Origin: an uncultured Actinomycetes bacterium
Lineage (GTDB): Bacteria > Actinomycetota > UBA4738 > HRBIN12
NCBI GenBank assembly: GCA_963797635.1
Contig: CAWCPZ010000003.1
Span: forward strand, 141,346 to 205,345
DNA length: 64,000 bases
Reading direction: 5' to 3'
Part shown: positions 4,566 to 57,733 of the stretch, in pieces
Position numbering within the stretch: position 1 is the stretch's first letter
Layout: every line of letters begins with the position of its first letter
Made by a program: the position numbers and the translations under genes
The notes under the pieces: model-generated
What the model was told of the DNA's origin: nothing
Seen by the model: only the letters and a program-made list of their open reading frames with translations
Databases searched by the model: none

Positions 4566-4592
4566 CCAGCGCCCGGGTTCGCCGGCCGATGG
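4566..4592 (+). promoter_or_regulatory. sigma28/WhiG-like promoter CCAG-N15-GCCGATGG
   Basis: GCCGAT box ends 9 nt before the ATG at 4602. Same architecture as four other sites in the window. Confidence 0.45.
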
Positions 4593-4601
4593 AATCGGGA
4601 G

Positions 4602-6128
4602 ATGGCCCACGCCCTGCGACCCGCCCCGACCCGGCACCGGACCCGGGTCACGAGCACCACGACGACCCGTCCTCGGCGGTGGCCGTCCCCGTGGCCCACG
4701 CTCGACCACGTCTGGGCGGCGCTCCCCGTCGTCATCCCGGTCGTGGTCTCCCTCGCGACCCGCATGGTGGCGATCGACCTCGCCTACCACGTACGCGCCG
4801 GCGAGCAGGTCCTGCGCGGGCGGGATCCCGAGGGCGACACGTGTACGTTCACGAGTGGCCGGAGCGGCCTGGCTGGACCAGCAGTGGCGTGCTCAGGCGC
4901 TGCTGGCATCGGCCCATCGCGTCGGAGGGTTCGCGCGATCGCCGCTGCTCCGAGCTGGGCTGATCGGGCTGACGTTCGCCCTGGTCTACCTGTCGTGCCG
5001 GGCCGAAGGGAGCGAGCCCGCGAGACCTCCTCGTTGCTGTCGCTCGGAGGGTTCGTCGTGTGCCTGCAGGCCCTGGCGATGCGACCGCAGCTCTTCGCGT
5101 TGCTTCCTGTTCGCCGCATCTTGTGGATCCTGGCGGCCCGCCACGCGCATCCCGGGCGGTGTGGGCCCTGCCGGTGCGGAGCGGTCGTGTGGGCCAACGT
5201 GCACGGAAGCTTCTTGCTCGCTCCCCTCTGCTGGTGCGGCCTGGCGCTGGTCGAAGACGTGATCGGAGGACTCCGGGATGGCGAAGGATGGCCCGGTCTC
5301 GCCGTGGGCTGACCGCGATCGCGACCTTGGTCAACCCCTTCGGCGTCGGCGTCTGGGGCTACGTCGTGGAGACCTGCGCACGAACCCGTCATCCGCGACA
5401 CGATCACCGAGTGGGCTCCGATGTCGGTCTCGACGTTCTCGGGGATCGCGTTCTTCCTCACGGCAGCCCTGATCGCGGATGGCTGGCTCGGCGCGAGCGC
5501 GTCCGTCCCGTGGGCCGCGTTGCTCTGGCTCGGAACCTTCTTCGCGCTCGCCTTGCCGGCCCGACGCGGCGTGATCTGGTGGGCGCTCGTGGCGCCGGTG
5601 GTGGTGGCCGGCCTCCTTGACCTTCGAAGCGCACCACGGACGATGCCCACCGGTTCGCGTTGGATGAACATGACGGTCATCGCGCTCCTCGGGGCGACGG
5701 TGCTTGCCTTCCTGCCGTGGTCGAGAGGCTTGCGTTCCACGGACCTGCTCGCAGAGGCGCCGGTGGGACTCACCGCGGCCGCCCGGGAGCAGCTGCCACC
5801 TGGGGCGAACGTGCTCACACCTCAGGCCTGGGGATCGTGGTTCGAGTTCGATGCCCCCGAGCAGCAGGTCTTCCTCGATGCACGGGTCGAGCTGCAGCCG
5901 CAAGCGGCCTGGGACGACTACAACGCGGTCCGAACCGCCCGAGGCGATTGGGGCGCCATCCTCGATCGATGGTCCGTCGATGCGGTCGTGGTGGATGCCC
6001 GCCCCGGCTGGGAGGAGCTGGAAGGTGCGCTGGCCGGGTCATCCGAGTGGTGTCTGGCCACGAGGGACGTGGCGGGGAGCCTGTTCATCCGAGACGACGC
6101 CGTCGACGGTCGCTGCATCGCATCATGA
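4602..6128 (+). CDS. Multi-TM membrane protein, putative GT-C-fold glycosyltransferase, several frameshifts
   Basis: Motifs DLAYHVRAG..D..TFT..WLDQQW, RPQLF, WANVHGSF, LVNPFG, ITEW and a soluble C-terminal domain VFLDARVEL..WDDY..ILDRWSVDAVV. Confidence 0.65.
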
Positions 6129-7385
6129 GTGGCACGGGCAGGTTCCGCCGGGGATCATCGTTGGCCCTCGCGGCCATGATGGGTCTCACGACGCTGACCA
6201 TGGTCCTCGGGGCTGGGCTCAAGTCCCCGTGCGCCGACCGATCGTGGGTCGAAGAACGACGCGGGGCCAGCGGCCAGTGCTACTCCGACATCGCCGATCT
6301 CCTTCGGACCGAGCAATTGGCCGACGGCCGCCTGCCGTATCTCGAACGATGTGACGCGGCGGCGAAGCCATGCGACGAGTATCCGCTCGTCTCGATGTAC
6401 GTGATGCGCTTGACCGCTTCATGGCCGGGAGGCGGCGACCCGTACACGACCTTCTTCTGGGTCAACGTGATACTGCTGCTGGCCTGCGCCCTCGTGATCA
6501 CGTGGTGCCTCGAACGGCTCGGCGCGGCGACCGCGTTGTTCGCGGCCGCTCCCACGCTGCTGATCTACGGGACGATGAACTGGGATCTCGTGCCGGTGGC
6601 GTTCGCAACGGTGGCGACGTTCGCATTCCTCCGGCGGCGCGAGGTCGCGAGCGGCATCCTTCTGGGCATCGGAGCGGCCGCCAAGCTCTACCCGGCGCTG
6701 TTGGTGTTGCCGTTCGCCGCCGATCGCTGGCGGACCGACGAACGCGGCCGAGGGGTGAAGCTGGTGCTCGCTGCCGGCCATCTCCTGGCTCGCCCTCAAC
6801 CTTCCGTTCGCCCTCGCGGCCCCGGAGGGCTGGTTCCATTTCGTCCGGTACCACTCGGAGCGACCGGCGGAGTACGACTCGCTCTGGCGGGTGGCGTGTG
6901 AGAACGGCCTGTGTCTGTCGACCGGCGCCATCAACGTCGCCTCGCTCATCCTGTTCGCGGTCGGGAGCGCGTTCGTGTGGCGCCTCAAGGAACGACGGGA
7001 CCCGGAGGTCCAGGCGTGGACATTCGGATTCGTCCTGGTCGCGATGTTCCTGTTGACGAACAAGGTGTGGTCGCCGCAGTACGCGTTGTGGCTGCTCCCG
7101 TGGTTCGCATTGGTGGCACCCTCGTTCAAGCCGTACCTCGCGTTCCAAGCGGCCGAGGTGCTGGTGTTCGTCGCGAGGTTCTCGTTCTTCCAGCATCTGG
7201 AAGGAGACGGCGGCCTGCCGTACGCAGCGCTTGAGATCGCGGTCGCTGCCCGAGCGTTGGCGCTGGTCTGGTGCCTCGCGGCGTGGGTGCGAGCTGACTA
7301 CTCCGTGGCGCCGACGGTGACGAGGCCGGACTGGGCCGCCAAGCGGATCGCCGCCAAGCGACTGCCGACCCCCAACTTGCCGTAG
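6125..7385 (+). CDS. Glycosyltransferase family 87 (DUF2029-like, polyprenol-phosphate-sugar dependent), frameshift ~6780
   Basis: KSPC..CYSDI..L..LPY..EYP, NWDL, GAAAKLYP, NKVWSPQYALWLLP motifs. ATGA overlap with the upstream gene. Confidence 0.85.
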
Positions 7386-8002
7386 ATCCGCGCGAGGTGG
7401 GTGGTGACGGTGCGCTCCCGCACGCCGAGCCGGGTCGCGATCTCGCGCGCGGTCAAGCCCTCGGCGGCCACGCTGAGGACCTCACGTTCGCGCTCGGTGA
7501 GCTTGATGTCGAAGTCGCGGCGACGCTGGAGGCCCTCGGCGATCTGGCCCACCGAACCCTGGGTCGGAGACGCCAGCACCATCTCGCGATCGGCCGCTCG
7601 CCGCAGGCCCTGCAGGAACTCGACGGGGTCGATGTTCTTGTCCACGAACCCGTCGGCGCCCATGAACAACACCCGGGAGATCGTCGTGGGGTCGGCGTTG
7701 GCGCCGCACCCCAGGATCGCATGGCTGGGGAACCGTTCCCGCATCGTGCGGATCAACCAGAACGCGTCCTGCTCGCCCCCGAGGCCGAGCCCCACCACGA
7801 TCACGACGCGCGAGCGCCGCACCCGGCTGACGATCTCGATGGCCTCGGCGGCGGTGCCGGCTTCGGCCAGCACCTCCATGTCGGGACGGTCGTCGATCAG
7901 CAGGGCGATGCCGGCACGCACGACCGGCAGCGGATCGACGAGCACGACGCCGAGTCGGCGGCGGGCCCGTGCCGCGGTGGGTTCGGGACTCGTTCGGTTC
8001 AC
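7298..8002 (-). CDS. NarL/LuxR-family response regulator, atypical (no phospho-acceptor Asp)
   Basis: HTH LTEREREVL..GLTAREIA..TVTTHLARIYGKLGV. Receiver reads VVIVVGLGL where D is expected. Confidence 0.9.
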   Translation of the reverse strand: MNRTSPEPTAARARRRLGVVLVDPLPVVRAGIALLIDDRPDMEVLAEAGTAAEAIEIVSRVRRSRVVIVVGLGLGGEQDAFWLIRTMRERFPSHAILGCGANADPTTISRVLFMGADGFVDKNIDPVEFLQGLRRAADREMVLASPTQGSVGQIAEGLQRRRDFDIKLTEREREVLSVAAEGLTAREIATRLGVRERTVTTHLARIYGKLGVGSRLAAIRLAAQSGLVTVGATE

Positions 8003-8009
8003 GATGAGG

Positions 8010-8037
8010 CTATCGGCAGGTTGAGGCGAGGTCGTGA
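8010..8037 (-). promoter_or_regulatory. sigma28/WhiG-like promoter TCAC-N16-GCCGATAG (leaderless)
   Basis: -10 box ends 7 nt before the GTG start at 8002; no RBS. Confidence 0.6.
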
Positions 8038-8063
8038 GCGCCTTCTGGCGCGTGCCCGACCGC

Positions 8064-8753
8064 TCAGAGCTCGATCAAGCCGAGCTGGGCGGCGCGTGAA
8101 ACGGCCTGCACCCGCGTGCGGACGCCCAGCTTGCGGTAGAGCTTGGCGACGTGCGTCTCCACCGTGCGTGGCGAGATGCCGAGGCGCGTGCCCACCTGCT
8201 GCATCGTGAACCCGTCGCTCACCATCACCAGGATCTCCTGCTCCCGAGGCGTGAGCGATGCCTCCATCTCGGAGCCTTCGCGGGCCTTCCTGGCGAAGCT
8301 GCCCAGGGCCATGACGGCAGCCTGCTCCAGATCGGGGTCGATCAGGCGCTCGCCGTCGGCGATCCGTCGCACGCAGTCGCCCACCGCGCGCAGTCCGTCG
8401 GCCTTGCCGAGGTAGCCGCGCACGCCGAGCTTCAGCGCGTCGAGCACGGAGGCGCCGTCGGTGCGATCGGTCAGCACGAGCACGCCCGCGGCGACGCCTT
8501 CTTCACGGATCGCGCGGAGCGCCTCGAGGCCGTCGCCGTCGTCGAGTTCGACGTCCAGGACGATCACGTCGGGATGCTCACGGCGGCAGGCCTCGAGCAA
8601 CCCATCGGCGTCGGTGACCTCCGCGACGATCTCGAGACCGCCTTCGGTCATGCACGAACGCCGCACGACCTCGCGGATCACCGGATGCGCCCCGGCGATG
8701 ACGACGCGCGCCGCTGCCGCCTCGTGGTTCGCTCGTGCTCCGTGGCCGGCCAT
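8064..8753 (-). CDS. NarL/LuxR-family response regulator, atypical (acidic metal-binding pair missing)
   Basis: VVIAGAHP in place of VVIADDHP; VIVLD, VLT and GYLGK retained. LuxR HTH LTPREQEIL..TVETHVAKLYRKLGV. Confidence 0.9.
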   Translation of the reverse strand: MAGHGARANHEAAAARVVIAGAHPVIREVVRRSCMTEGGLEIVAEVTDADGLLEACRREHPDVIVLDVELDDGDGLEALRAIREEGVAAGVLVLTDRTDGASVLDALKLGVRGYLGKADGLRAVGDCVRRIADGERLIDPDLEQAAVMALGSFARKAREGSEMEASLTPREQEILVMVSDGFTMQQVGTRLGISPRTVETHVAKLYRKLGVRTRVQAVSRAAQLGLIEL

Positions 8754-8776
8754 CGGACGAAGGCTACCCCGGCCAC

Positions 8777-9433
8777 CTAGGCGGTGCGGGTCGCCGACCC
8801 CAGGCCGTTGCGCCAAGCGAGCCGCACGGCCTCGACCTTCGAGTGCACGCCGAGCTTGGCCAAGATGTTCTTCACGTGGCTCTGCACCGTGAGCGGGCTG
8901 ATCCCCAGCTCGCGCGCGATCTCGGGAGTGGACCGACCGTCGGCGAGCGCTCTCAGGATCTGACGCTCACGTCCGGTGAGCGACGTCCACCCGTCGGCGT
9001 GGTCGCGGTTGCCCATCAGGCGGTCGACCAGCCGGGGAAGGTCGGCGGCCGGCAGGACGAGTTCGCCGGCGACGGCGCGACGGAAGACGTCGATCAGGGA
9101 GCGGTCACGCACCGTGGGCAACACCCCACAGGCTCCTGCCGCCAGCGCCGTGGCCGCGGTCTCGGGTCCGTCCTGGGTGCTGGCCGCCAGGACGCGGATC
9201 CGCCCCGAGCCGTCCCGGATCGAGCCCACGACCTCGGCGCCCCGGCCGTCTTCGCGGTCGAGGTCGACCAGCACGAGGTCGGCGAGGCCCTCTTCCAACG
9301 CCGCGAGGGCCTCGGGGGCGTCGGGCACCGGACCCAGGACATGGATGGGCCCGCGTCGGGGCAGCGCAAGGATCAGTCCCTGCGCGAGCCCCGGGCTCTC
9401 GTCCACCACCAAGACCCGGATGTCCTCGCTCAT
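8777..9433 (-). CDS. NarL/LuxR-family response regulator, atypical (conserved Lys missing)
   Basis: MSEDIRVLVVDES, LVLVD retained; GACGVLPT in place of GA.GYLLK. HTH LTGRERQIL..TVQSHVKNILAKLGV. Confidence 0.9.
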   Translation of the reverse strand: MSEDIRVLVVDESPGLAQGLILALPRRGPIHVLGPVPDAPEALAALEEGLADLVLVDLDREDGRGAEVVGSIRDGSGRIRVLAASTQDGPETAATALAAGACGVLPTVRDRSLIDVFRRAVAGELVLPAADLPRLVDRLMGNRDHADGWTSLTGRERQILRALADGRSTPEIARELGISPLTVQSHVKNILAKLGVHSKVEAVRLAWRNGLGSATRTA

Positions 9434-9441
9434 CTCCGCAC

Positions 9442-9469
9442 CCATCGGCATCGTTGGTGGGTGGCCTGA
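9442..9469 (-). promoter_or_regulatory. sigma28/WhiG-like promoter TCAG-N16-GCCGATGG (leaderless)
   Basis: -10 box ends 8 nt before the ATG at 9433. Confidence 0.55.
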
Positions 9470-9511
9470 AGCAGCCGAGTGCATCTGGGCAGGACGCGAG
9501 ACACTGGAGGC

Positions 9512-11597
9512 ATGAGCGATCGCCCGGCGAACCGGCTCGCGGACCAGACCAGCCCCTACCTCCTGCAGCACGCGCACAACCCGGTGGACTGGTACCCGTG
9601 GGGACCGGACGCGCTGAACGCGGCACGCGAACGCGACGTGCCGATCTTCCTGTCGATCGGCTACGCGGCCTGCCACTGGTGTCACGTGATGGAGCGCGAG
9701 TCGTTCGAGGACGAAGCGACCGCGGCGTTGATGAACACATCCTTCGTCTCGATCAAGGTGGACCGGGAGGAGCGACCCGACCTGGACGGCATCTACATGG
9801 ATGCGGTGCAGGCGATGACGGGTCACGGCGGCTGGCCCATGTCGGCGTTCCTCACGCCCGACGGACGGCCGTTCTACGCGGGCACGTACTACCCACCGGA
9901 GCCGCGTCCCGGGATGCCGTCGTTCCGCCAGGTGCTGACGGGGATCGCCGAAGCATGGGATGAGCGTCGCGACGAGATCGTGGCCCAGGCCGGCAAGGTG
10001 ACGGAGTCGATCGCCAGCGTGGGGTCGCTGGAAGGATCGAACGATCCCTTGACCGGGGAGGTCGCCCGGGAGGCCATGCAGGCCCTGCGGCCCTCGTTCG
10101 ACGGCCGCTGGGGCGGGTTCGGCGGCGCACCGAAGTTCCCGCAGCCGATGACGCTGGAATTCTGCCTGCGGCAGTCGCTGCGCGGCGTGCCCGACGCGCT
10201 GGAGATGGTGGTGATCTCGCTCGACCGGATGGCGGAGGGCGGGATCTACGACCATGTGGGCGGGGGGTTCGCCCGGTACTCCACCGACGGTGCGTGGCAC
10301 GTTCCCCACTTCGAGAAGATGCTCTACGACAACGCCCAGCTCGTGCAGCTGTACACGCGGACCTGGCAGGTCACCGGCGAGGATCGCTACCGCCGCGTGG
10401 CGACCGAGACGGTCGAGTACCTGCTGCGGGAGATGCAGCATCCCGAGGGCGGGTTCTTCTCCTCCCAGGACGCCGACTCCGAAGGCGTCGAGGGCAGGTT
10501 CTTCACGTGGACCTGGGACGAGTTGGTCGACCTGGTCGGCGAGCCGGTGGCGGCGTGCTTCGGCGCCACGGTCGAGGGCAACTGGGCCGGCGAGGAGGGG
10601 CGCACGAACGTGCTGTGGCGTCCGATCGCGATCTCGGCGGTGGCGCGCGAGCACGGACTCGATCCCACGGACCTCGAGGCGATGGTGGAGGACGCGCGCA
10701 CCGTCCTGTTCGAGGCACGGGACGCACGCGTCCACCCCGGCACCGACGACAAGGTGCTCACGGCATGGAACGCGATGGCGATCCGAGCGCTGGCCGAAGC
10801 AGGCCGCGCCTTCGACGAACCCCGCTACATCGAGGCGGCGACGCGCTGCGCGTCGTTCGTGCATGACGCACCTGCGTGACCAGGGCGGACGGCTCCTTCG
10901 CTCGTGGCGGAACGGGGTGGCCGGAGGTCCCGCCTTCTGCGAGGACCATGCGCAGTTCGCGTCGGCGTGCCTCACCCTCTACGAGACCACGCACGACCTC
11001 GCATGGTTCACCGCCGCGCGCGAGACGGCCGATGCGATGCTGCGGCTGTTCGCCGACACGGAACGCGGCGGCTTCTTCGTGACCGGGTCGGACGCCGACC
11101 CGTTGGTGGTTCGTCCCAAGGACCTGCAGGACAACGCGGTGCCCAGCGGCAACTCGGTGGCGGCCGAGGTGCTGCTGCGCCTGTCGCACCTCACCGGTGA
11201 GGTGTCCTACGAGGAGGCGGGCGCGTCGGCGCTCCGCCTGGTGCGCGACGTGATGGGCAGGGTGCCGACAGGGTTCGGCCACGCGTTGTGCGCGCTGGAC
11301 CTGGTCCTCGGGCCCGTCCACGAGGTGGCGATCGTGGGACCGATCGATGCGGCGGCGACGCGCGCGTTGACGCGCGAGGTCACGGTGCGCCGGTATCTGC
11401 CGAACGCGGTGCTCGCGGTGGCCGGACCGGAGGACGACGGCGCGCGCGAAGCGGTCGCGCTGCTCACCGACCGCGAGCCTCGCGACGGTCAGCCGACGGC
11501 GTACGTGTGCGAGCACTTCACCTGCAAGCTGCCCGTCACCGCGCCCGAAGACCTGGCCGCCCAGCTCACGCCCGCCGGTTCCGACGGTCTCGGGTAG
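9512..11597 (+). CDS. YyaL/SPATA20-like thioredoxin-domain protein (DUF255 + alpha/alpha barrel), frameshift ~10865
   Basis: [71 protein letters not shown]. Confidence 0.93.
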
Positions 11598-19864: not shown

Positions 19865-20836
19865 ATGACACGCAAGGACCGGCTCCACCGAAGCGAACTC
19901 GCCGTTCCCGGCACGAACGTGCGCGCCATGGAGAAGGCCGCCACGCTCGATGCCGACGTCGTGTTCCTCGACCTCGAGGACGCCGTGGCGCCCGACGACA
20001 AGGAAGCGGCGCGCGGCAACATCATCGAGGCGCTCGGCGTCAACGACTGGTCGCGAACGGCCGTCAGCGTGCGCATCAACGGGCTCGACACCCACTGGTG
20101 CTACCGCGACGTCGTCGACGTCGTGGAGGCGCGCGGCCAGGTGCTCGACACCGTGCTGGTGCCCAAGGTGGGCTCGCCCTCCGACGTCGAGTTCGTGGCG
20201 ACGCTGCTGGACCAGATCGAGCAACGCAACGGCTGGGAGCCCGGCCGCATCGGCATCCACATCCTGATCGAGACCGCCGCGGGGATGGCCAACGTCGAGG
20301 CGATCAGCCGGGCTCGGCCCGACCGGCTCGAGGCCATGGTGTTCGGCGTCGCCGACTACGCGGCTTCGGTCCGTGCGCGCACGACGAACATCGGCGGGGC
20401 CAACCCCGGCTACTCCGTGCTCACCGATCCGTTGCCGCAGACGGGCGCGCGCGAGATCCACTGGGGCGACCAGTGGCACTTCGGGATCAGCCGCATGGTG
20501 GCGGCGTGCCGCGCCGAAGGCCTGCGCCCGATCGACGGTCCGTTCGGCGACTTCAACGACCCGGACGGGTACCGCAGCGCGGCGAGGCGCGCCGCGGCGC
20601 TGGGCTGCGAGGGCAAATGGGCGATCCACCCGTCGCAGGTCGAGTTGGCGAACGAGGTCTTCTCCCCTGGCGAGGACGAGGTCGACCGCGCGCGCCGGAT
20701 CCTCCAGGCCATGGAGGACGCAGCGAAGGAGGGCAAGGGCGCCGTCTCGCTCGACGGACGGCTGATCGACGCCGCCTCGATCCGGATGGCGGAGAACCTG
20801 ATCCGCCAGGTGGAGCAGATCACCAGCAGGTCGTGA
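19865..20836 (+). CDS. mcl: L-malyl-CoA lyase (HpcH/CitE family)
   Basis: RLHRSELAVPG, FGVADYAAS.RAR...IGG.N..YSVLTD, GLRPIDGPFGDF.DPDGY, EGKWAIHPSQ, GAVSLDGRLID.ASIRMAE. From memory, these stretches closely follow methylotroph MclA. Confidence 0.88.
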   Translation: MTRKDRLHRSELAVPGTNVRAMEKAATLDADVVFLDLEDAVAPDDKEAARGNIIEALGVNDWSRTAVSVRINGLDTHWCYRDVVDVVEARGQVLDTVLVPKVGSPSDVEFVATLLDQIEQRNGWEPGRIGIHILIETAAGMANVEAISRARPDRLEAMVFGVADYAASVRARTTNIGGANPGYSVLTDPLPQTGAREIHWGDQWHFGISRMVAACRAEGLRPIDGPFGDFNDPDGYRSAARRAAALGCEGKWAIHPSQVELANEVFSPGEDEVDRARRILQAMEDAAKEGKGAVSLDGRLIDAASIRMAENLIRQVEQITSRS

Positions 20837-20904
20837 ACGACCGGCACGACCGCATCCGGTCGCGCCTGAAGGAAGCCCGCAGCCGGGCGCCGAAGGAGCA
20901 GCAG

Positions 20905-22080
20905 ATGGATATCCACGAGTACCAGGCCAAGCAGCTGCTTCGCAGCTACCGGGTGACCACGCCTCGAGGCGAGGTGGTCTACACGTCGAAGGCGGCCGCT
21001 CGCGTCGCCGAGGAGCTCGGCGGCCAGCGATGGGTGGTGAAGGCCCAGATCCATGCGGGTGGGCGCGGCAAGGCCGGTGGCGTGAAGCTGGGCAACTCCC
21101 CCGACAAGATCGCCGAGATCGCCGATCAGATGCTGGGCTCCACGTTGGTCACCGCACAGACCGGTCCCGAGGGCCAGCGGGTCAGCCGCGTGCTGGTCGA
21201 ACGTGCCTCGCGGATCGAGCGGGAGTTCTACCTCTCGCTGGTGGTGGACCGTGATTCGCAGCGGATCGTGGTGATCGCCAGCGCTGAGGGCGGCGTCGAC
21301 ATCGAGGAGGTCGCCGCGTCCGACCCCGGCGCGATCCACACCGAGTACGTGGACCCCGGGGTCGGATTGCTGGACTTCCAGTGCCGCAAGGTGGCGACCG
21401 CGATCGGGCTGGGCAACCGCACCGCCTCGTTCACGCGGCTGCTCAAGCGCATGTACCGGCTCTTCCGCGACCTGGACTGCCTGATGCTCGAGGTGAACCC
21501 CTTCATCGAGACCGAGGACGGCGACCTGGTCGCCCTGGACGCGAAGATGAGCTTCGACGACAACGCGTTGTTCCGCCAGGGCGACGTGGTGGAGCTGCGC
21601 GACTTCGAGGAGGAAGACCCCAAGGAGGTCGAGGCCACCGGCCACGGGCTCAACTACATCGCGCTCGACGGCTCGGTGGGCTGCATCGTGAACGGCGCCG
21701 GCCTGGCGATGGGGACGATGGACGCGATCGTGCACCACGGCGGGCGCCCGGCGAACTTCCTCGACGTAGGGGGCGGTGCCAGTCCCGAGAAGATCGCGAA
21801 CGCCTTCCGGATCGTGCTGCAGGACCCGAACGTGCAGGCGATCCTGGTGAACATCTTCGCGGGCATCAACCGGTGCGATTGGATCGCGCAGGGCGTGGTG
21901 CAGGCGACGCGCGATCAGGCGATCGGCGTCCCGGTGATCGTCCGGTTGGCCGGCACCAACGTGGAGGAAGGCCGGAAGATCCTGGACGAGAGTGGCCTGG
22001 CCCTGATCCAGGCCGACGACCTCGACGACGCCGCGGCCAAGGCCGTGCACGCGGTGAGCGAGCAAGGGGTGCCGGCATGA
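20905..22080 (+). CDS. mtkA: Malate-CoA ligase (malate thiokinase) beta subunit
   Basis: MDIHEYQAK, KAQIHAGGRGKAGG, and the Mtk-type NIFAGINRCDWIA (SucC has NIFGGI.RCD). Adjacent to mcl. Confidence 0.85.
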   Translation: MDIHEYQAKQLLRSYRVTTPRGEVVYTSKAAARVAEELGGQRWVVKAQIHAGGRGKAGGVKLGNSPDKIAEIADQMLGSTLVTAQTGPEGQRVSRVLVERASRIEREFYLSLVVDRDSQRIVVIASAEGGVDIEEVAASDPGAIHTEYVDPGVGLLDFQCRKVATAIGLGNRTASFTRLLKRMYRLFRDLDCLMLEVNPFIETEDGDLVALDAKMSFDDNALFRQGDVVELRDFEEEDPKEVEATGHGLNYIALDGSVGCIVNGAGLAMGTMDAIVHHGGRPANFLDVGGGASPEKIANAFRIVLQDPNVQAILVNIFAGINRCDWIAQGVVQATRDQAIGVPVIVRLAGTNVEEGRKILDESGLALIQADDLDDAAAKAVHAVSEQGVPA

Positions 22081-22976
22081 GCGTGTTCGTGGACAAGGAC
22101 TCGAAGGTCATCATCCAGGGCTTCACCGGACAGCACGCCACGTTCCACGCCGAAGAGGCGATGTCGTTCGGGACGAAGGTCGTGGGAGGCGTCACCCCCG
22201 GCAAGGGGGGGACCACCCACCTGGGGTTGCCGGTGTTCAACAGCGTGGCCGAGGCGGTCGAGGAGACCGGCGCCGATGTGTCGGGCATCTTCGTGCCGCC
22301 GGCGCTCGCGACGGACTCCCTGCTGGAAGCGGCCGAGGCCGGCGTGGGGGTGGCGGTGATCATCGCCGACGGGGTCCCCGTCCAGGACATGGTCCGCACC
22401 AAGCGCTACCTCGCGGGGCGTTCGACGCGCATCATCGGACCCAACTCCCCCGGCATCATCACGCCTGGCGCGTGCAAGGTGGGCATCATGCCGAGCCACA
22501 TCTACCTGCCGGGGCGCGTGGGCGTGGTGTCGCGAAGCGGCACGCTCAACTACGAGGCCGTCTCGCAGATGACCGCCCGCGGCCTGGGGCAATCGACCTG
22601 CGTGGGCATCGGCGGCGACCCCGTGAACGGCACCGACTTCAAGACCGTCCTGCAGGCCTTCGAGAACGACGACGAGACCGACGTGGTCGTGATGATCGGC
22701 GAGATCGGCGGGCAGCAGGAGGTCGAGGCGGCCGCGTGGGCGGCGCAGTACATGTCGAAGCCGCTCGTGGCCTTCATCGCCGGAGTCTCGGCGCCGCGCG
22801 GCCGGCGCATGGGACACGCGGGCGCGGTGATCGCGGGCGAGTCCGACACCGCGAACGCGAAGCTGGACGCGATCGAGGGCCACGGCCACCGGGTGGTGCG
22901 CAACCCGGCCGACATCGGCGAGACCGTGTTCCGCGCCGTCAAGGAGGCCGGCGACCGGGTGGGCGCCGCGTCGTAG
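22077..22976 (+). CDS. mtkB: Malate-CoA ligase alpha subunit (SucD family)
   Basis: QGFTG, GGVTPGKGG, SRSGTLNYEA, GIGGDP, RMGHAGA phospho-His. ATGA overlap with mtkA. Confidence 0.85.
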   Translation: MSVFVDKDSKVIIQGFTGQHATFHAEEAMSFGTKVVGGVTPGKGGTTHLGLPVFNSVAEAVEETGADVSGIFVPPALATDSLLEAAEAGVGVAVIIADGVPVQDMVRTKRYLAGRSTRIIGPNSPGIITPGACKVGIMPSHIYLPGRVGVVSRSGTLNYEAVSQMTARGLGQSTCVGIGGDPVNGTDFKTVLQAFENDDETDVVVMIGEIGGQQEVEAAAWAAQYMSKPLVAFIAGVSAPRGRRMGHAGAVIAGESDTANAKLDAIEGHGHRVVRNPADIGETVFRAVKEAGDRVGAAS

Positions 22977-23095
22977 CGGCTCAGGCTCGAGCAGCGCCCG
23001 CTCCACCATCACGCGATCCGATGCTCGCGGAGCGCGCAACGGCGGGCGCATCCGAAGCATCGAACGGTCGACGCTCACGGAAAGGGGCGAAGACC

Positions 23096-23922
23096 ATGGC
23101 CGCACGACTCACCGTCGATCCCACCGTTGGCCCGCCCGACGCTGCGCGACCGGTTCGAACGCGACGGGTTCGTCCGGATCACGGGCGCGCTCACGGACGC
23201 CGAGGTGACACGGTACCGGCGTGCCGTGGATCGGGTGGCGGCCGAACACGGCTCCGAGGGCACGATGCTGCATCGGTTGGCGTTCCTCGGCGACGATCCG
23301 TCATTCGTCAAGCTGCTTGACCATCGTGCCACGTTGCCGTTGGTGCGGCAGGTGCTGGGCGACAACATCCACTGCTACCACTGCCACCTGGACGTCCACC
23401 CTGGTGCCGAGACGCCCCGGGATGTGTGGCTGTGGCATCAGGACGGCGGCGTGGTGAACCGGGACCTGGAGACCTCACCCCGGCCGCGGCTGTCGGTCAA
23501 GGTGGCGTTCTTCCTGTCCGACGTGTCGATCCCGGGCCGCGGAAACCTGGTGGTACTCCCCGGCTCACAACGGACCGACCGGATGGAGCCACCCGCCGAC
23601 AGATCGAACGACCTGCCGGGCGCTCAGCCGATCCTGGCGGCGGCGGGCGACGCCGTGATGTTCGATCGCCGCCTCTGGCACATGCGCAGCCCCAACACGA
23701 GCGACGTCACCCGGAGGGTGCTGTTCCTGGCGTACACCTACCGGTGGATCCGGCCGCGCGACGACATGCCGATACCCACGGACGGTGGTGGCGGCGGCAA
23801 CGACCGTCCAGCGGCAGCTCCTGGGGATCCCCGACGCCGCCGTCGACCACTGGTCCCTGGGCGAGCCGCCCGCGCTCGCCGATCGGCCTCACGCCACTCC
23901 TTCGTCGGGACCGGCGCGGTAG
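23096..23922 (+). CDS. Phytanoyl-CoA dioxygenase (PhyH) family Fe(II)/2-oxoglutarate oxygenase, frameshifts near both ends
   Basis: FERDGFV, WHQD (HxD), LPGS, AGDAVMFDRRLWH..SPN.S...RR. Confidence 0.85.
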
Positions 23923-25007
23923 CGGATGCCGCTCGGCCGGTGCCACGTGACGTCGCCGTCGTCGGTGCGCGCGATCGACCATCCGTGCTCGTGCACCAGC
24001 TTGTGATGGAACGAGCAGACGAGGATGAGGTTGTCGAGATCGGTGGTGCCGCCGCGCGACCACCATTCGATGTGATGGGCCTGCGTGAACCGCCGGGCGT
24101 CGCACCCGGGGAACCGGCAGGCGTCGTCGCGATGCCGGAGCTGGCGCATCATCCAGGCCGACGGTTCGCGGGCGAGTCGACCGACCCCCGCCACCGTGCC
24201 GTCGGGTCGTTCGAGCACCATCTGGACGCGCGCGTTGCACAGCAGCCGCTGCGCCGTGGAGCCGCCGATCACCGGCCCGTCCTCGATCAAGGCGTTGGCG
24301 TCGACACCCTCGAGCACGTCGATGTCGGCATGGACCACGATCGTGGCTCGGTCCTGATCCTCGTCACCGGCGAGGCGGGCGGAGCACAGCGCGACGAGCG
24401 CGTCGGCCCGGCGGCTGCCCACGAACCGGTCGGACTCCTCCCCGGGCATGACGGGGATCTGGTCGCCGAGCCGATCGAGCGCCTTCGCCACCACGGCCCC
24501 CTGCGCCGACGGGAGTTCGCCGTCGATCACGAACCGCTGGCCCTCGTCGGCGACCTTCCACTGCAACCAGCGTGTGCGTTCGGCTTCGGCGGCCTGCTCG
24601 TCGCGATGCGCCACCTGCAGGTCGCCCGCTCGCCTGATCGCGCCCGAGGAGACCCCTTGGGCCCAACGCACGAGCGCGTCTTCATCGTCGAAGGAGGCGA
24701 ACCGGGTGAGCTCGACGACCTTGTCGATGCCGAGATCGCCACGCGCGAGCGCGTGAGCGGTGGCGGGCAACGTGGGGAGCGCCCGGCCGGCGCCGAGCAG
24801 CCGGTCGGCCTTCCAGCGGGAGACGTCCAGCGCCATCGACGTCCACTGAGCCATGTCGTGGGCGCCGTCTTCGACCCAGGCCTGCCGGGTCTCGAGCTGG
24901 GCGAGGACCTCCAGCAGTTCGCGCTGACGTTCGGCGATCTCGCGGTGCAGGGTCTGGACGCGGCCGATGAGGTCCTGCGTGTCGGTGAGCAGTGGATCCA
25001 CGTGCAT
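23889..25007 (-). CDS. DUF222 + HNH endonuclease (REP13E12-like protein)
   Basis: RRADALV, RLLC, RDDACRFPGC..AHHIEWW..GGTTDLDNLILVCSFHH..VH. Confidence 0.92.
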   Translation of the reverse strand: MHVDPLLTDTQDLIGRVQTLHREIAERQRELLEVLAQLETRQAWVEDGAHDMAQWTSMALDVSRWKADRLLGAGRALPTLPATAHALARGDLGIDKVVELTRFASFDDEDALVRWAQGVSSGAIRRAGDLQVAHRDEQAAEAERTRWLQWKVADEGQRFVIDGELPSAQGAVVAKALDRLGDQIPVMPGEESDRFVGSRRADALVALCSARLAGDEDQDRATIVVHADIDVLEGVDANALIEDGPVIGGSTAQRLLCNARVQMVLERPDGTVAGVGRLAREPSAWMMRQLRHRDDACRFPGCDARRFTQAHHIEWWSRGGTTDLDNLILVCSFHHKLVHEHGWSIARTDDGDVTWHRPSGIRYRAGPDEGVA

Positions 25008-25043
25008 CCGTTCCGGGGGAGGACGGGTGGTGGACGACGCTGC

Positions 25044-25073
25044 ATGCTACTCGAACATACGTTCGGATGTCAA
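25044..25073 (-). promoter_or_regulatory. Promoter TTGACA-N18-TAGCAT with a LexA SOS box CGAAC-ATAC-GTTCG (25052-25065) in the spacer
   Basis: Matches the actinobacterial/firmicute SOS box CGAAC-N4-GTTCG. Confidence 0.85.
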
Positions 25074-25108
25074 GCCCCACGGCGCCGGACAGGTAACGTG
25101 GCTCTCCC

Positions 25109-26234
25109 ATGGCGACACCGGCGACCTCGATCGAGGTGCAGGGGCGGGAGATCCGCGTCACGAACCCCGACAAGGTGTACTTCCCCGACGCCGAGGGCGG
25201 CCCGATCACGAAGCTCGAGGTGGTGGAGTACTGGGCCGCGGTGGCCGAAGCCGCGCTTCACGGCTGCCGTGACCGCCCGGAGATCCTGCACCGCTTCCCC
25301 GCGGGGGTGGCCGACGACGGCGAGGGCTCCTTCTATCAGAAGCGCATCCCCAAGGGGTCGCCCGAGTGGGTGCAGACCGCCACCGTGATGTTCCCGAGCG
25401 GACGCACCGCCGCGATGCCGGTGATGGCCGACGAAGCGGCGCTGGTCTGGGCCGCGACGCTGGGCTGCCTGGAATGCAATCCCTGGCCGGTACGTGCCGA
25501 CGACGTCGCTCACCCCGATGAGTTACGGGTGGACCTCGACCCCACGCCCGGTGTGCCGTGGGACGACGTGCGGAGGGTGGCGCTGATGTCGCGCGACGTC
25601 CTGGCCGAACACGGACTCACCGGGTTCCCGAAGACCAGCGGCAAACGGGGCCTGCACATCAACGCCCGGGTGGAGCGAGGGAACGGCTTCACGGCGACGC
25701 GGCGCGCGGCGCTGGCCTTCGCGCGCGAGGTGGAGCGGCGCATGCCGGGCATCGCCACCACCGCGTGGTGGAAGGAAGAACGTCAGGGCGTGTTCCTCGA
25801 CTACAACCAGAACGCGCGCGACCGCACCGTGGCGAGTGCGTATTCGGTCCGGCCCATGCCCGACGCTCGCGTGTCGACACCGCTGGCTTGGGACGAGGTG
25901 GCCGACGTCGATCCCTCGCGCTTCACGGTGCGGACCGTGCCCGGCCGGTTGCGCGAGATCGGCGATCCGGGTGCCGGGATCGATCGAGCACGTGGGCAGC
26001 CTCGACGCATTGCTGGCGCTCGCAGAGCAGGACGCCGCCGGCGGCCTGGGCGATGCGCCGTGGCCACCGCATTTCCCGAAGGGCGACGACGAACCGGTGC
26101 GGGTGAACCCCTCCCGCGCGAAGAAGATCGCCGAATGGGAGGAGATGAAGCGCCAAGGTCTGGGCGGCGATCGAGGCCAGGGAAGCCAGGGCCGTGGCCA
26201 GGGCCGTCGCCGGAAAGAGCCGGGTTCGGCCTAG
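25109..26234 (+). CDS. Stand-alone LigD-type polymerase (primase-polymerase, Prim-PolC-like), frameshift ~25990
   Basis: TNPDKVYFP, FYQKR, PDELRVDLDP, PKTSGKRGLH, FLDYNQNARDRTVASAYSVR, WPPHFPK. Confidence 0.92.
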
Positions 26235-27313: not shown

Positions 27314-27534
27314 GGGCCGACCCTATCGCGCGCCGGACCACGACCTCATGCGGGCAGCCGCGCCGAGCCCAGGGTTGCCCCCACGCGCACCACGCCGGTC
27401 GTCTTCGCGCACGAGATGGCGCCCATGTCACCATCCGGTGACGATTGGCGATCATGCGGCCAGTGGGGGATGCGTGCGACGGCGGAACGTGCAACGGTGG
27501 GAGCGCTCCACCCCCGCGAACGAAGGAGCTCCCC

Positions 27535-27825
27535 GTGTCGGTACGTCATGCAGAGCAGACCGTGATCATCGACGAAGGAACCGACGACGCCTTCGCGCTC
27601 GCCCAGCGGGTCCTCGATGAGATCGGCACCGTCTCGCATGTCGACCTGGAGGGCCGCTTCCTCCAAGGCACCACGCGCTCCGGGTTCCAGCGGGTCCGGG
27701 TGGGGATCACCGCCCGGCCGACGAGCCGCGGCACCGCGCTGGTGGTGGAGGCGTCCTCGCACGGCACCCGCAGTCAGGCCCGCAAGGGCGTCAGCCGGGT
27801 GGTCGGCGCGCTCGGCGTCGTCTGA
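27535..27825 (+). CDS. Small hypothetical protein (~96 aa)
   Basis: AAGGAG RBS before the GTG at 27535; high GC at third codon positions. Confidence 0.65.
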   Translation: MSVRHAEQTVIIDEGTDDAFALAQRVLDEIGTVSHVDLEGRFLQGTTRSGFQRVRVGITARPTSRGTALVVEASSHGTRSQARKGVSRVVGALGVV

Positions 27826-27830
27826 GTCCG

Positions 27831-43900: not shown

Positions 43901-44350
43901 GACCTGCAGGGCGCGCAGGATGCCCTGGACGAGTTCGCGACCCTCACGGCCGAGGTCCCGAACTACCGGGCGTTCATGCTGCCGGTGGCGGTGCGCGCGT
44001 TCCTCGCCATGGGCAAGCTCGAGAAGGCGCTGGCGCTCCAGCCCTTCCAAGCGGACGTGCGCACTGAGCGGCACGCCCTCTCCTTCCTGACCGCTCAGGC
44101 CGCGATCGCCGCGGCCCGCGGCGAACTCGACGTCGCCGCGCGGATGTTCGCCGAGGCCGCCGCGCGATGGGAGCGGTACGGCTTCGCGCTCGAAGCGGGG
44201 CAGACGCTGCTCGACCTTGCGCAGTGCCAGCAGGCGCTGGGACGCCACGACGAAGCGGAGGCGACCGCGGCGCACGGCCGGGACGTGTTGGCGCCGATGG
44301 GCATGCCCGCCACGTCGCCGCCGTCGAACGAACTCCCCAGGTCGGGCTAA
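40905..44350 (+). CDS. Zinc-ribbon + class III adenylate/guanylate cyclase + AAA ATPase + TPR protein, frameshifts ~42030 and ~43400
   Basis: CPRC..FCLHCG, VFCDLVGFT, DKFIGDAVM, GEPGIGKSRL, IEDLHWAD, GGNPLYAEE, ARLDAL. Confidence 0.92.
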
Positions 44351-44375
44351 GGACACCGGGGTAGCCCGCCGATAC
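44348..44375 (+). promoter_or_regulatory. sigma28/WhiG-like promoter TAAG-N16-GCCGATAC (leaderless)
   Basis: Near-consensus match; -10 box ends 7 nt before the ATG at 44383; no RBS. Confidence 0.65.
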
Positions 44376-44382: not shown

Positions 44383-45249
44383 ATGCGGCACGATCGACTT
44401 CGCGCCTCGTGGATCGCCACCGCCGTCGCGGCCGTGCTGGCGCTCGGCGCACCGGTGGTCACCACCGTGGTCGAGCACGACCGTGCTCCCGTCGTGCATC
44501 GTGCCCTCACCGGCGCCCACGCCGCCCACCATCCGTTCACCGACCGAGCCCCCGTCCCCACGCTCAGTGCGCGGGTGATGGTCGCCGCCGCGGCCGACGT
44601 TCGGGCACCCAGGTCGAAGCCGAAGCGGACGCACGAACGGCCGGTCTCCCACCTGCTGGTGCGGGTCCCGAACGCGATGACCGTGCGCGCCCGCCCCGAT
44701 GCCGATGCGGCCGCCGTGGGCACCATGCCCTCGGGCTCGAAGTACTACGGCGTCCCGATCACGGCCTGGGTCGCGGAGACCGCCAAGGACGGCCGGTGGG
44801 GACGCGTCGAGATCCCCTACGTCTGGCCGCGGCGCGACGGCTGGATCCCGCTGCGCGGCCTCGCGCACGACCACACGTTCGTCGAGGTGCACGTCGACCT
44901 GTCACGGCACTGGGTGAGCGTCTCGAAGTTCGGCCACGTGCTGTTCGGGTTGCGAGCGGCGACCGGCGCGGCCGCGAGTCCCACCCCCGAAGGGGAGTAC
45001 TTCGTGACCGATCGCATCCCCTTCCCGGCGGGCGGTTCGCTCGGATCGTTCGCGTTCGGGATCTCCGGGATCCAGCCGCGCCTGCCCGCCGGCTGGAGCG
45101 GCGGCAACCAGCTCGCGATCCACGGCACCAACGACCCGTCTTCGATCGGCACGAGCGCCAGCGCCGGATGCGTCCGCGTGAGCGAACGAGGCCTGGACCG
45201 CCTGATGCCGCTGCTGCGACTGGGAACGCCGGTCATCGTCGAACGCTGA
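44383..45249 (+). CDS. Secreted L,D-transpeptidase (YkuD family) with SH3b-like domain
   Basis: Signal peptide, DGWIP, TG....PTPEG.Y, AIHGT..SIG.SASAGCVR. Confidence 0.9.
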   Translation: MRHDRLRASWIATAVAAVLALGAPVVTTVVEHDRAPVVHRALTGAHAAHHPFTDRAPVPTLSARVMVAAAADVRAPRSKPKRTHERPVSHLLVRVPNAMTVRARPDADAAAVGTMPSGSKYYGVPITAWVAETAKDGRWGRVEIPYVWPRRDGWIPLRGLAHDHTFVEVHVDLSRHWVSVSKFGHVLFGLRAATGAAASPTPEGEYFVTDRIPFPAGGSLGSFAFGISGIQPRLPAGWSGGNQLAIHGTNDPSSIGTSASAGCVRVSERGLDRLMPLLRLGTPVIVER

Positions 45250-56457: not shown

Positions 56458-57653
56458 GCGGCACGCTGGGCGGCGCCCTCGAGCGCCGGTTGCTCTCCAT
56501 CGTCGGCGGCACGATCCGGGTCGGCCGGCTCACCGTGAGCCTGCCCGACGGCACGGAGCGGGAGTTCCGCGGCCGCTTCGACGGGCCCGAGGCCCACGTC
56601 GATCTCCACGACTGGCGCCTGCTTCGACGGCTCACGTCCACCGGGGCGATCGGACTGGCCGACGGCTACGTCGCGGGCGAGTACGACTCCCCCGACCTGT
56701 CCGCCTTCCTGGAACTCGCGGCCTGGCACCTGGAACCCGCCTACCGCTACGAGGTGCCGGGGTGGCTCTACGCCGTCGGACGAACCGCGTGGAAGCTGCT
56801 CGGTGCATCGGCGAAACCGCGTGGCCCGCTGCAGGACATCGTGCAGCACTACGACCTGGGCAACGACTTCTACGAGGCCTGGCTCGACGAGACGATGACC
56901 TACAGCTCGGCCGTCTTCGCCGACGAGCGCATGACCCTGGCCGAGGCGCAGGCCGAGAAGTACCGGCGGCTCGCCGCCGCGACGGGGATCGGGCCCGGGG
57001 ACCACGTGCTCGAGATCGGGTCGGGCTGGGGTGGGTTCGCCGCGGTGCTGGCCGACGAGATCGGCTGCCACGTCACCACGATCACCGTCTCCAAGCAGCA
57101 GCATGACCACGTCGAGAAGCTGATCGCCGATCGCGGGCTCGCCGATCGCGTGCAGGCCCAGCTCCGGGACTTCCGGGACGTGCGCGGCGACTACGACCAC
57201 ATCGTCTCGGTGGAGATGATGGAGTCGATCCCCGCATCGTTGTGGTCACCCTTCTTCGGACAGCTCCGGTCGCTCACGAAACCGGGAGGCACGATCGGCC
57301 TGCAGCTGATCGAGGTGGCCGAGCATCACTGGTCGATCTCGGACACGAACCTCGACTTCGTGCGCCGCTACATCTTCCCCGGCGGCCAGGTGCCGTCCGA
57401 ACCGGTGCTGCGCGACCTCGCTTCGGCGTTCGGTCTGCGCTGGCGGGCGAACCGGGAGTACGGCCAGGACTACGCGCGCACCCTCCGCGCCTGGCTCGCC
57501 GGTTTCGACGCCGCCTGGCCCTCGATCCGAGGGATGAGCGCCGGCTTCGACGACCGGTTCCGGAGGATGTGGCGCTACTACCTCGCGTATTGCGGCGCAG
57601 GGTTCGCGGTGGGCCGGGTCGACGTCAGCCAGATCGTGCTCGAACGCCCCTAG
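56454..57653 (+). CDS. SAM-dependent fatty-acyl methyltransferase (cyclopropane synthase family; UfaA1/UfaM-like)
   Basis: HYDLGNDFY.AWLD.TMTYSSA, LEIGSGWGG, YIFPGG, RMWRYYLAYC. Confidence 0.92.
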   Translation: MSGTLGGALERRLLSIVGGTIRVGRLTVSLPDGTEREFRGRFDGPEAHVDLHDWRLLRRLTSTGAIGLADGYVAGEYDSPDLSAFLELAAWHLEPAYRYEVPGWLYAVGRTAWKLLGASAKPRGPLQDIVQHYDLGNDFYEAWLDETMTYSSAVFADERMTLAEAQAEKYRRLAAATGIGPGDHVLEIGSGWGGFAAVLADEIGCHVTTITVSKQQHDHVEKLIADRGLADRVQAQLRDFRDVRGDYDHIVSVEMMESIPASLWSPFFGQLRSLTKPGGTIGLQLIEVAEHHWSISDTNLDFVRRYIFPGGQVPSEPVLRDLASAFGLRWRANREYGQDYARTLRAWLAGFDAAWPSIRGMSAGFDDRFRRMWRYYLAYCGAGFAVGRVDVSQIVLERP

Positions 57654-57704
57654 CCCGAACGGACGCACCCGGACGGCCGAACGGCAGTAGTCACCCCTGG
57701 GGGG

Positions 57705-57733
57705 TCAAGTTGGACCACCCCTGCGACCGATAG
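57705..57733 (+). promoter_or_regulatory. sigma28/WhiG-like promoter TCAAG-N16-ACCGATAG (leaderless)
   Basis: -10 box ends 8 nt before the ATG at 57742. Confidence 0.5.

Follow-up and report, generated by a model that had tools for sequence, protein, structure and literature searches.

Here we describe a set of predicted promoters of the sigma-28 (FliA/WhiG) type in the genome of an uncultured actinobacterium, five of which lie in a single stretch of 64,000 nucleotides (G000:C3:141346-205345, hereafter the window). The genome comprises 2,995,007 bp in 13 contigs, with 69.3% GC and 92.68% completeness. A preliminary description of the window had reported one bipartite motif at five places, 7-9 nt ahead of an ATG or GTG codon, and had proposed that a WhiG-like sigma factor controls a hidden regulon of leaderless genes through it. 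All five motifs are present in the sequence, and they belong to a genome-wide set of about 30 predicted promoters of this kind. We put the probability that these promoters are of the sigma-28 type at roughly 0.87. The word hidden overstated the novelty of the system, as WhiG regulons of like content are in print for Rubrobacter and for many Actinomycetota. What we report is a well-supported new example of a known WhiG/sigma-28 regulon class in non-flagellated actinobacteria and not a new principle.

The five sites and the genes that they precede are listed below, with the score of each site on the genome-wide matrix described in the next section.

4565..4592, plus strand: site 1 promoter, TCCAG (CCAG at 4566-4569), N15, GCCGATGG at 4585-4592, then 9 nt to the ATG at 4602; score 13.5, with a weak -35 part (2.3)
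4602..6128, plus strand: site 1 gene, a polytopic membrane protein, possibly GT-C-like, of ~500 amino acids (aa) in relatives and disrupted here
8010..8037, minus strand: site 2 promoter, TCAC(G) at 8037-8034, N16, GCCGATAG at 8017-8010, then 7 nt to the GTG at 8002; score 20.4
7298..8002, minus strand: response regulator R1, GerE 63.2 bits and Response_reg 34.1 bits (Pfam)
9442..9469, minus strand: site 3 promoter, TCAG(G) at 9469-9466, N16, GCCGATGG at 9449-9442, then 8 nt to the ATG at 9433; score 18.9
8064..9433, minus strand: response regulators R3 (8777-9433) and R2 (8064-8753), REC and GerE in both (Pfam)
44348..44375, plus strand: site 4 promoter, TAAG(G) at 44348-44351, N16, GCCGATAC at 44368-44375, then 7 nt to the ATG at 44383; score 15.9
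44383..45249, plus strand: L,D-transpeptidase gene, YkuD 56.3 bits (Pfam)
57705..57733, plus strand: site 5 promoter, TCAAG (CAAG at 57706-57709), N16, ACCGATAG at 57726-57733, then 8 nt to the ATG at 57742; score 20.5
57742..60638, plus strand: DUF1800 (57742-59343) and DUF1501 (59340-60638) genes, 361.7 and 93.9 bits, with overlapping stop and start codons

Genome-wide enrichment and conservation of the motif

Within the window the 8-mer RCCGATRS occurs 45 times against 28.2 +/- 5.7 expected, a mild excess that 1 of 100 shuffles reached. For the whole genome, a home-made codon-usage gene caller was used, which placed 2814 genes on 81.6% of the sequence and classed 19.7% as non-coding, and motif positions were measured relative to the 5′-edge start codons of coding open reading frames (ORFs). 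The word NCCGATAN, present in 383 copies, peaks 7-12 nt ahead of such starts (9, 4, 7, 4, 8 and 3 copies; elsewhere mostly 0-3). Its start-adjacent sites fall into two classes: usual TANNNT promoters with a coincidental CCGA in front, as in CCGA-TAGGCT, and GCCGATA words 7-8 nt from the start that have no final T and often have TCAAG ahead of them.

The pattern T[CA]AN-N(sp)-NCCGA, which was not trained on the data, was counted when it ended 7-10 nt before a 5′-edge start. It was found 23 times with a spacer of 16 and 11 times with a spacer of 17, against 2-9 times with each of 16 other spacers. Controls in the same codon phase gave 8, 7, 9, 4 and 7 for comparison with spacer 16 and 6, 3, 2, 3 and 5 for comparison with spacer 17 (Poisson P = 1.4e-6 and 1.9e-3, respectively). 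In non-coding DNA, TCAAG-N15-GCCGA occurs 13 times and its N16 form 8 times, other spacers giving 0-9 (mean ~2.6). The positional enrichment beside start codons that the preliminary description had anticipated is therefore found over background as a spacing-specific signal in the genome, and the motif is also strongly enriched in non-coding DNA.

A matrix was built from 34 seeds and then rebuilt from 29 non-coding hits. Its refined consensus reads gcTCAAG ... tGCCGAT(A/G)C, with 16 bp (17 sites) or 17 bp (12 sites) between TCAA and GCCGA; counted from TCAAG, the same spacing is N15/16 before GCCGAT[A/G]. The share of matches in non-coding DNA, as judged by the caller, changes with score as follows.

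Score at least 22: 11 of 11 matches non-coding
Score 20-22: 9 of 9 non-coding
Score 18-20: 9 of 12 non-coding
Score 16-18: 10 of 24 non-coding
Score 14-16: 36 of 96 non-coding
Score 12-14: 39 of 206 non-coding, equal to the non-coding share of the genome

At scores of at least 18, then, 29 of the 32 matches are non-coding in a genome that is 19.7% non-coding. The first matrix was circular at the fixed seed positions T[CA]A and CCGA, and we therefore rely on the untrained pattern, on matches that were not seeds and on conservation. The non-seed matches are also mostly intergenic: twelve have leaders of at least 33 nt, three are coding and one more proved coding on inspection. A reversed-genome control for the first matrix was set aside; the real genome held 4-7 times more matches at all thresholds, which codon-driven words (GCC-GAT) explain. 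Two segments, C1:~20403-29123 and C4:~157844-166564, contain identical ORFs and identical matrix matches and represent either a duplicated segment or redundancy in the assembly.

Conservation is the strongest evidence for the predicted promoters. Orthologues of the targets were located in 30 relatives, 18 of them of the same genus, and their upstream DNA was scored; these related genomes are non-independent samples. For R1, all 19 same-genus genomes (its own included) carry CTCA[CGT][CGT]-N16-GCCGAT[AG]G, with scores of 13.8-20.4 and unrelated spacers, and none of the five R1 orthologues from other families scores above 9.9. Seven of the 19 have the 8-mer 6-7 nt from the start; the other 12 have it 32-81 nt upstream and carry a GGAGG ahead of the start. 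This variable distance, together with the separate GGAGG, is the behavior of a promoter and not of a translation signal. The invariant -10 part is GCCGATAG and not TANNNT, the would-be hexamers of R1 orthologues reading TAGGGG, TAGAGG, TAGCTC and TAGGAC.

The other window sites are likewise kept. All 15 same-genus DUF1800 loci have TCAAG-N16 (N17 in G014)-[GA]CCGATA followed after 8-10 nt by ATG/GTG-AGGGG, with flank maxima of 9.9-18.0. Before the YkuD gene, the -10 element lies at most 13 nt from the ATG in 15 of 18 same-genus loci, with TAAGG, TCAAG, TCAGG and TTCAG as -35 variants; at the three loci where the motif was missing the protein match began at residue 67-86, which probably put the scan in the wrong place. 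The site 1 gene is preceded by TCCAG/TTCAG-N14-15-[GC]CCGAT, 7-9 nt and ATG/GTG in seven of eight same-genus loci. The arrangement of site 3, with the ATG 8-9 nt downstream, is retained in all five other loci that reach the gene (G014, G002, G010, G003 and G007). Outside the window, the promoter precedes a GAF-PAS-GGDEF-EAL gene in 14 of 15 congeners, each time next to the ATG, and a pilin-like gene in 11 of 11 genomes analyzed; five of these 11 come from four other families, and in three of the five the promoter abuts the ATG. Orthologues retain both half-sites and the distance between them around spacer letters that drift, and the best score in ~3-5 kb of flanking DNA is usually 7-15. Sites 1 and 4 draw their support from conservation among relatives.

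These counts leave out, for R1, a locus at a contig edge (L161), the second pieces of split genes (L166 and L173) and paralogue-level loci (L169-L171, one of them G023); for DUF1800, second pieces (L190-L193); and for the GGDEF-EAL and pilin genes, partial loci (L263-L265, L275-L280 and L282-L284), paralogous or partial GGDEF-EAL loci (L251 and L253-L260) and both G023 rows; G023 underlies none of the claims made here. Near the regulator locus of five congeners (L149, L150, L156, L159 and L163, in G010, G018, G006, G011 and G017) there is a further conserved sigma-28-like promoter, TCAAGctttcgcgc...G[CT]CGAAAA, with a leader of ~55 nt, a strong Shine-Dalgarno (SD) sequence and a gene starting MLR or MFL; it was not located in the genome of the window.

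The sigma factor and competing explanations

The WhiG-like sigma factor postulated in the preliminary description has a candidate in the genome. Of 12 matches to the FliA/WhiG family model TIGR02479, only the product of C11:516541-517215 passes the curated cut-off (267.9 against 189.6 bits), the next scores being 114, 109 and 106 bits. This protein matches Streptomyces venezuelae WhiG (PDB 6pfj) over nearly its full length at 306.7 bits, with near-identity in the parts that align to sigma-2.4/3.0 and 4.2. The nearest public WhiG loci belong to metagenome-assembled genomes of uncultured Actinomycetota, and more distant ones are labelled Acidimicrobiia. FlhA (FHIPEP) and flagellin (Flagellin_N) have no match in this 92.7%-complete genome. 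Upstream of the whiG homologue no matrix match of at least 12 was found that would indicate autoregulation; one coding match of 14.1 lies 2 kb away.

We infer the pairing of this homologue with the promoters. In the mechanism that we propose, the five motifs would be read by RNA polymerase carrying this WhiG-type protein, the single sigma-28-family factor of the genome. Its sigma-4 domain would bind a -35 element with the consensus TCAAG, tolerating the variants TCAC, TCAG, TAAG and TCCAG, and sigma-2/3 would bind the extended -10 element GCCGAT(A/G), with 16-17 bp between TCAA and GCCGA. An 8-mer ending 7 nt before ATG or GTG would place +1 at the start codon and one ending 8-10 nt before it would leave a leader of 1-3 nt, and the leaderless messengers would be translated by actinobacterial ribosomes without a Shine-Dalgarno sequence. 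Some 30 promoters would in this way drive pili, two GGDEF-EAL enzymes, peptidoglycan and glycan remodelling, DUF1800/DUF1501 and signalling proteins, and R1, which has no phospho-acceptor Asp, may extend the cascade as WhiI and BldM do in Streptomyces.

Several observations weigh against this reading. The word GCCGATG is common in coding DNA, with 1861 copies in the genome and no clear positional peak. One top match counted as non-coding, C11:353350, is actually inside an rpe-like gene that the caller missed, so that the true count is 28 of 32. The seeds were picked beside start codons, which makes the leaderless matches among the top scores partly circular. Non-coding DNA also holds 19 copies of T[AC]AA-N10-GCCGA and 9 of TCAAG-N9-GCCGA, unexplained numbers that are on a par with those of the functional spacing. 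By score, sites 1 and 4 are not separable from background. The -35 consensus TCAAG departs from the textbook TAAA by a C (position 2) and a G (position 5). An RNA contig from the metatranscriptome described below (7876-8065) bridges the site 2 promoter, for which read-through or DNA is possible. Lastly, the genome has 27 Sigma70_r2 matches, and another sigma factor is formally possible.

On that last point, a real promoter class might be read by a different alternative sigma factor, of group 3 or of the extracytoplasmic function (ECF) group, and the three proteins at 106-114 bits on the FliA/WhiG model, although below the cut-off, are further candidates. The sequence read is nevertheless the published WhiG2 consensus, GCCGATA with a T(A/C)AA -35 at N16 (bioRxiv 10.64898/2026.01.14.699351); GCCGATA is a hallmark of sigma-28 (PMC12784957); the DNA-reading regions of the homologue are near-identical to those of S. 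venezuelae WhiG; and the classes of target match known WhiG regulons. We regard a different factor as quite improbable. Ordinary leaderless promoters of the sigma-70/HrdB type would resemble the motif wherever the TA of CCGATA begins a TANNNT hexamer, GCCG and the '-35' then being chance. The genome is rich in such promoters: the hexamer ends 6, 7, 8 and 9 nt before 170, 95, 65 and 56 predicted starts (386 in total), with at most 18 at any other distance. A CCGATA subclass is clearly housekeeping (CCGA-TAGGCT, -TAGACT and -TACACT, 5-8 nt from the start), and site 2 contains TAGCCT. Against this, the would-be hexamers of sites 1-5 (TGGAAT, TAGCCT, TGGGTG, TACGGC and TAGAAC) lie only 4-6 nt from the start and mostly have no final T, orthologues drop that last T while keeping GCCGAT(A/G) and the -35 at 16-17 bp, and enrichment is tied to a TCA-type -35 at a spacer of 16 or 17. 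A housekeeping origin is very unlikely on these grounds.

The position of the conserved motif right at gene starts, the presence of several regulators among the targets and the separate conserved TACGTA-N4-TACGTA that adjoins site 1 would also suit the operator of a regulator or an RNA or translation element at the 5′ end. The half-sites are, however, unrelated to each other and form neither a palindrome nor a repeat, they stand a promoter-like 16-17 bp apart around a free spacer, and the distant R1 motifs of 12 congeners, each with its own GGAGG, speak against a role in translation; we give this explanation very little weight. Chance, finally, could place five look-alike words by start codons in a GC-rich window, given the frequency of GCCGATG in coding DNA, a degenerate -35 chosen post hoc and a site 1 at background level. 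The spacer controls, the excess of non-coding matches and conservation in up to 19 genomes make chance barely credible and favor the sigma-28-type reading.

Predicted transcript starts and the RsiG arm

In 16 of the 28 true non-coding matches scoring at least 18, 7-11 nt separate the 8-mer from the predicted start; the distance is 33-60 nt in eight (three at exactly 37 and one hand-set at 33) and about 70-186 nt in four. In the sigma-28 open complex of Pseudomonas aeruginosa on fliC, the elements are (-15)GCCGATAA(-8) and (-36)TCTAAAG(-30) (PMC12784957). With the 8-mer at -15 to -8, a gap of 7 nt makes the first letter of the start codon +1. At sites 1 and 3 the GGAG touches the ATG, too close to serve as a normally spaced Shine-Dalgarno sequence. 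It is probable, judging from these distances, that the start-codon-adjacent promoters yield leaderless mRNAs. The organism seems to rely on leaderless expression in general, a Shine-Dalgarno-like word preceding only 909 of 2813 predicted genes. Housekeeping-type hexamers here are often TAGNNT; GreA (C4:60025-60573), for example, has TAGACT. Among the papers listed by a literature search, none dealt with a leaderless WhiG/sigma-28 regulon to judge from titles and the starts of abstracts, which is not proof of absence.

Metatranscriptome data came from four runs of one study that contained parts of 4000-10000, with 6-17% of the sampled words. Contigs 95-99% identical to the window cover 7216-9426 at a depth of 2-9, and two of them end at 7987 and 7994, near the start at 8002, although contig ends cannot show transcription starts. 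Over 9427-9828 (plus strand), where a gene for a DUF255/thioredoxin-like protein lies at 9512-10879, the summed RNA depth in X1 is 114-428, against 2-9 over the regulators; it comes largely from pieces of 38-46 nt and may mark a stretch, conserved or highly expressed, that other organisms have in common with this one.

The preliminary description had also drawn an analogy to the RsiG-WhiG switch controlled by cyclic di-GMP (c-di-GMP), which the genome did not support. The RsiG signature E(X)3S(X)2R(X)3Q(X)3D has no exact match among ORFs of at least 60 codons in the 92.7%-complete genome, as judged by the pattern with no profile search, and none of 55 matches with one mismatch is a plausible RsiG. 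The best-looking of them is GreA, and three small candidates had no RsiG match in the PDB. Within 3 kb of whiG, none of 80 related loci has the motif. In S. venezuelae numbering, Lys57, Gly61 and Arg62 of WhiG contact c-di-GMP, and Gly61 is said to be intolerant of side chains (bioRxiv 10.64898/2026.01.14.699351). Aligned to 6pfj, the homologue reads K-Y-V-A-S-R: Lys57 and Arg62 are kept and Gly61 is replaced by Ser. Of the 80 related loci (L044-L123), 78 have this segment; 60 of the 78 carry Ser and 18 carry Gly, the Gly forms being the most distant and labelled Acidimicrobiia. Of the sigma-4 residues that contact RsiG, Thr235, Leu236, Tyr239, Glu240 and Leu242, four of five are identical here (T, L, F, E, L), Tyr239 being Phe.

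Together, the signature search and the change of Gly61 to Ser are no more than suggestive. A bolder scenario, which we consider doubtful, is that WhiG has escaped sequestration by RsiG and c-di-GMP and come under other control, for example by one of its own small zinc-ribbon targets, while still driving c-di-GMP enzymes, two kinds of pilus and wall hydrolases, mostly from leaderless transcripts.

Regulon content and relation to known systems

The predicted targets outside the sites listed above, together with the families to which the window genes belong, fit the cell-surface programme that the preliminary description had proposed, with pili, c-di-GMP enzymes, wall enzymes and regulators among them.

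Pili: a 622-aa type IV pilin-like protein with a GFTIVE prepilin N-terminus, encoded between pilB/pilT/pilC and a prepilin peptidase (PilD) gene
Pili: a Flp pilin
c-di-GMP turnover: two PAS-GGDEF-EAL proteins
Wall and glycan enzymes: GH114, peptidase M23, NlpC/P60+SLH and YkuD
Further enzymes: a C45/AAT-family protein and an NAGPA phosphodiester glycosidase
Cell surface: a Wzz fragment, whose gene possibly has a frame problem in the assembly
DUF families: DUF1800/DUF1501, DUF4446 and a weak DUF3137 match
Signalling and other: a HisKA kinase, an AAA ATPase, an aminotransferase and response regulators
Small zinc-ribbon proteins (CxxC...CxxC), two of the highest-scoring targets: C11:633435-633611, minus strand, 58 aa, score 25.4, and C11:273929-274303, plus strand, 124 aa, score 22.8
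Several proteins without a family

From this list a physiological role at the surface, in adhesion and in remodelling of the cell wall would follow. SigD of Bacillus controls autolysins, and the NlpC/P60 and M23 targets here would parallel that. An anti-sigma role for the zinc-ribbon proteins is pure speculation.

In the window itself, Pfam agrees with most of the earlier labels. The genes at 8002 and 9433 encode response regulators with REC and GerE/LuxR domains, the gene after site 4 has the YkuD domain of an L,D-transpeptidase, and DUF1800 is followed by DUF1501. As for the proposed Tat export of the last two, DUF1501 has a weak TAT_signal match below the cut-off (19.1 against 22.7 bits). 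A third regulator, R2, lies between R1 and R3, and the 23-nt gap between R3 and R2 makes a two-gene operon probable. In an alignment of only these three neighboring regulators, R1 has Gly in the column of the phospho-acceptor Asp that its paralogues carry, R3 is without the conserved Lys and R2 is without the N-terminal acidic pair. The parallel to whiI that had been drawn for these regulators is reasonable for R1.

The site 1 gene fared differently. It starts at 4602, not 4603, in frame with 4515-5312, and in this assembly frame changes interrupt it, as does an in-frame stop at 5310-5312. Intact orthologues of 491-507 aa cover 4695-6116 by tblastn, residues ~65-132 needing a second frame. The GT-C label given to it found no Pfam match, either for the window gene or for two intact orthologues of ~500 aa; GT-C families appear only as low-grade protein-atlas leads (0.92-0.93), and a weak GT87 match belongs to ORF 5660-6901, in a different frame. 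The associated idea of pilus glycosylation is speculation about a disrupted gene without a family that simply lies beside a Tad pilus cluster. That Tad/Flp cluster (window 1-4113, minus strand) encodes TadE-like and SAF-domain CpaB-like proteins and is divergent from the site 1 gene, with a CpaF-type ATPase just outside the window (C3:140415-141242). Upstream of the cluster, at ~4449 on the minus strand, a good -35 match is joined to a poor -10 match (score 14.4).

The DNA of the site 1 gene is only ~80% identical to G002 and G014, with ~60 gaps; the flanks of those two genomes are 95-96% identical to those in the window. About 1.2 kb of extra sequence follows the membrane-protein gene (region 4602-7385, plus strand) and holds the weak GT87 match. 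Either this is a surface-glycan locus, hypervariable or in decay, or the differences are assembly errors. Just 5′ of the site 1 -35, at 4535-4552 (plus strand), stands the element ACGTAGTCCTACGTACGC, two TACGTA hexamers 4 nt apart. G000, G002, G014 and G015 all conserve it, and variant forms occur in G005, G012, G001 and G020, the last from another family; a similar element, TACGTACGTAGC, adjoins a sigma-28-type promoter at C9:164770. The TACGTA-N4-TACGTA element may be the operator of an activator, which would make up for the weak TCCAG -35.

One of the closest described systems is the (RsiG)2-(c-di-GMP)2-WhiG regulon of Rubrobacter radiotolerans, likewise a non-flagellated actinobacterium, and a unicellular one, with a WhiG-type sigma-28 and flagellar-type promoters. 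Schumacher et al. (2021) searched that genome for TAAA/GCCGATAA and confirmed 12 promoters by start-site mapping; these lie in the type IV pilus cluster and before genes for diguanylate cyclases and phosphodiesterases (PMC8325347). Here, similarly, one promoter falls between pilC and the pilin-like gene, and two GGDEF-EAL proteins are targets. In contrast to R. radiotolerans, our lineage is uncultured, its -35 is TCAAG, many of its targets remodel the wall, the RsiG signature was not found and Ser replaces Gly61. Start sites were mapped there and are inferred from sequence here, and the main text of that paper does not use the word leaderless (PMC8325347).

Across 673 reference genomes, Denis et al. 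(2026) distinguish an actinobacterial WhiG1, linked to flagella and to CTCA-N16-17-GCCGAACT, from a WhiG2, linked to RsiG and to T(A/C)AA-N16-GCCGATAA; their predicted regulons contain response regulators (WhiI- and BldM-like ones included), diguanylate cyclases and phosphodiesterases, type IV pili and others (bioRxiv 10.64898/2026.01.14.699351). The present regulon is like those of WhiG2 in its T(A/C)AA-N16-GCCGA register, in its classes of target and in having WhiG without a flagellar cluster. It differs in that RsiG, which typically co-occurs with WhiG2, was not found, and some of its -35 elements, such as that of R1, read CTCA as in the WhiG1 query. The main text of Denis et al. contains none of the terms uncultured, metagenome, Acidimicrobiia, leaderless, cell wall and peptidoglycan; the supplementary tables may list related targets.

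In Streptomyces, WhiG acts on whiI and whiH in a developmental cascade (bioRxiv 10.64898/2026.01.14.699351). The NarL/LuxR-type targets here with degenerate receiver pockets (R1 and R3) recall that cascade; unlike in Streptomyces, there is no evidence of sporulation or hyphae, and the regulon is much broader on the envelope side. With the classical FliA/SigD promoters, exemplified by fliC of P. aeruginosa, the motif shares the -10 word GCCGATA and a TAAAG-like -35 (PMC12784957). The differences are that no flagellar or chemotaxis genes were found here, that the spacer is 1-2 bp longer than in TAAA-N15 and that over half of the promoters adjoin a start codon.

The regulon does not overturn current understanding. 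It provides a set of about 30 promoters, backed by comparative genomics, in a soil and rhizosphere lineage of actinobacteria without a cultured member, in which the Ser that replaces Gly61 of WhiG lineage-wide, together with the absence of a detectable RsiG, is a notable point. The high share of start-codon-adjacent promoters makes it possible in this group to predict start sites, and with them to annotate gene starts, from sequence alone, and the R1 promoter, predicted to be leaderless in 7 genomes and Shine-Dalgarno-led in 12 congeners, offers a natural series for the gain and loss of a leader. The finding extends the picture of a flagellar sigma factor put to new use in non-motile actinobacteria, serving pili, the turnover of c-di-GMP and remodelling of the envelope.

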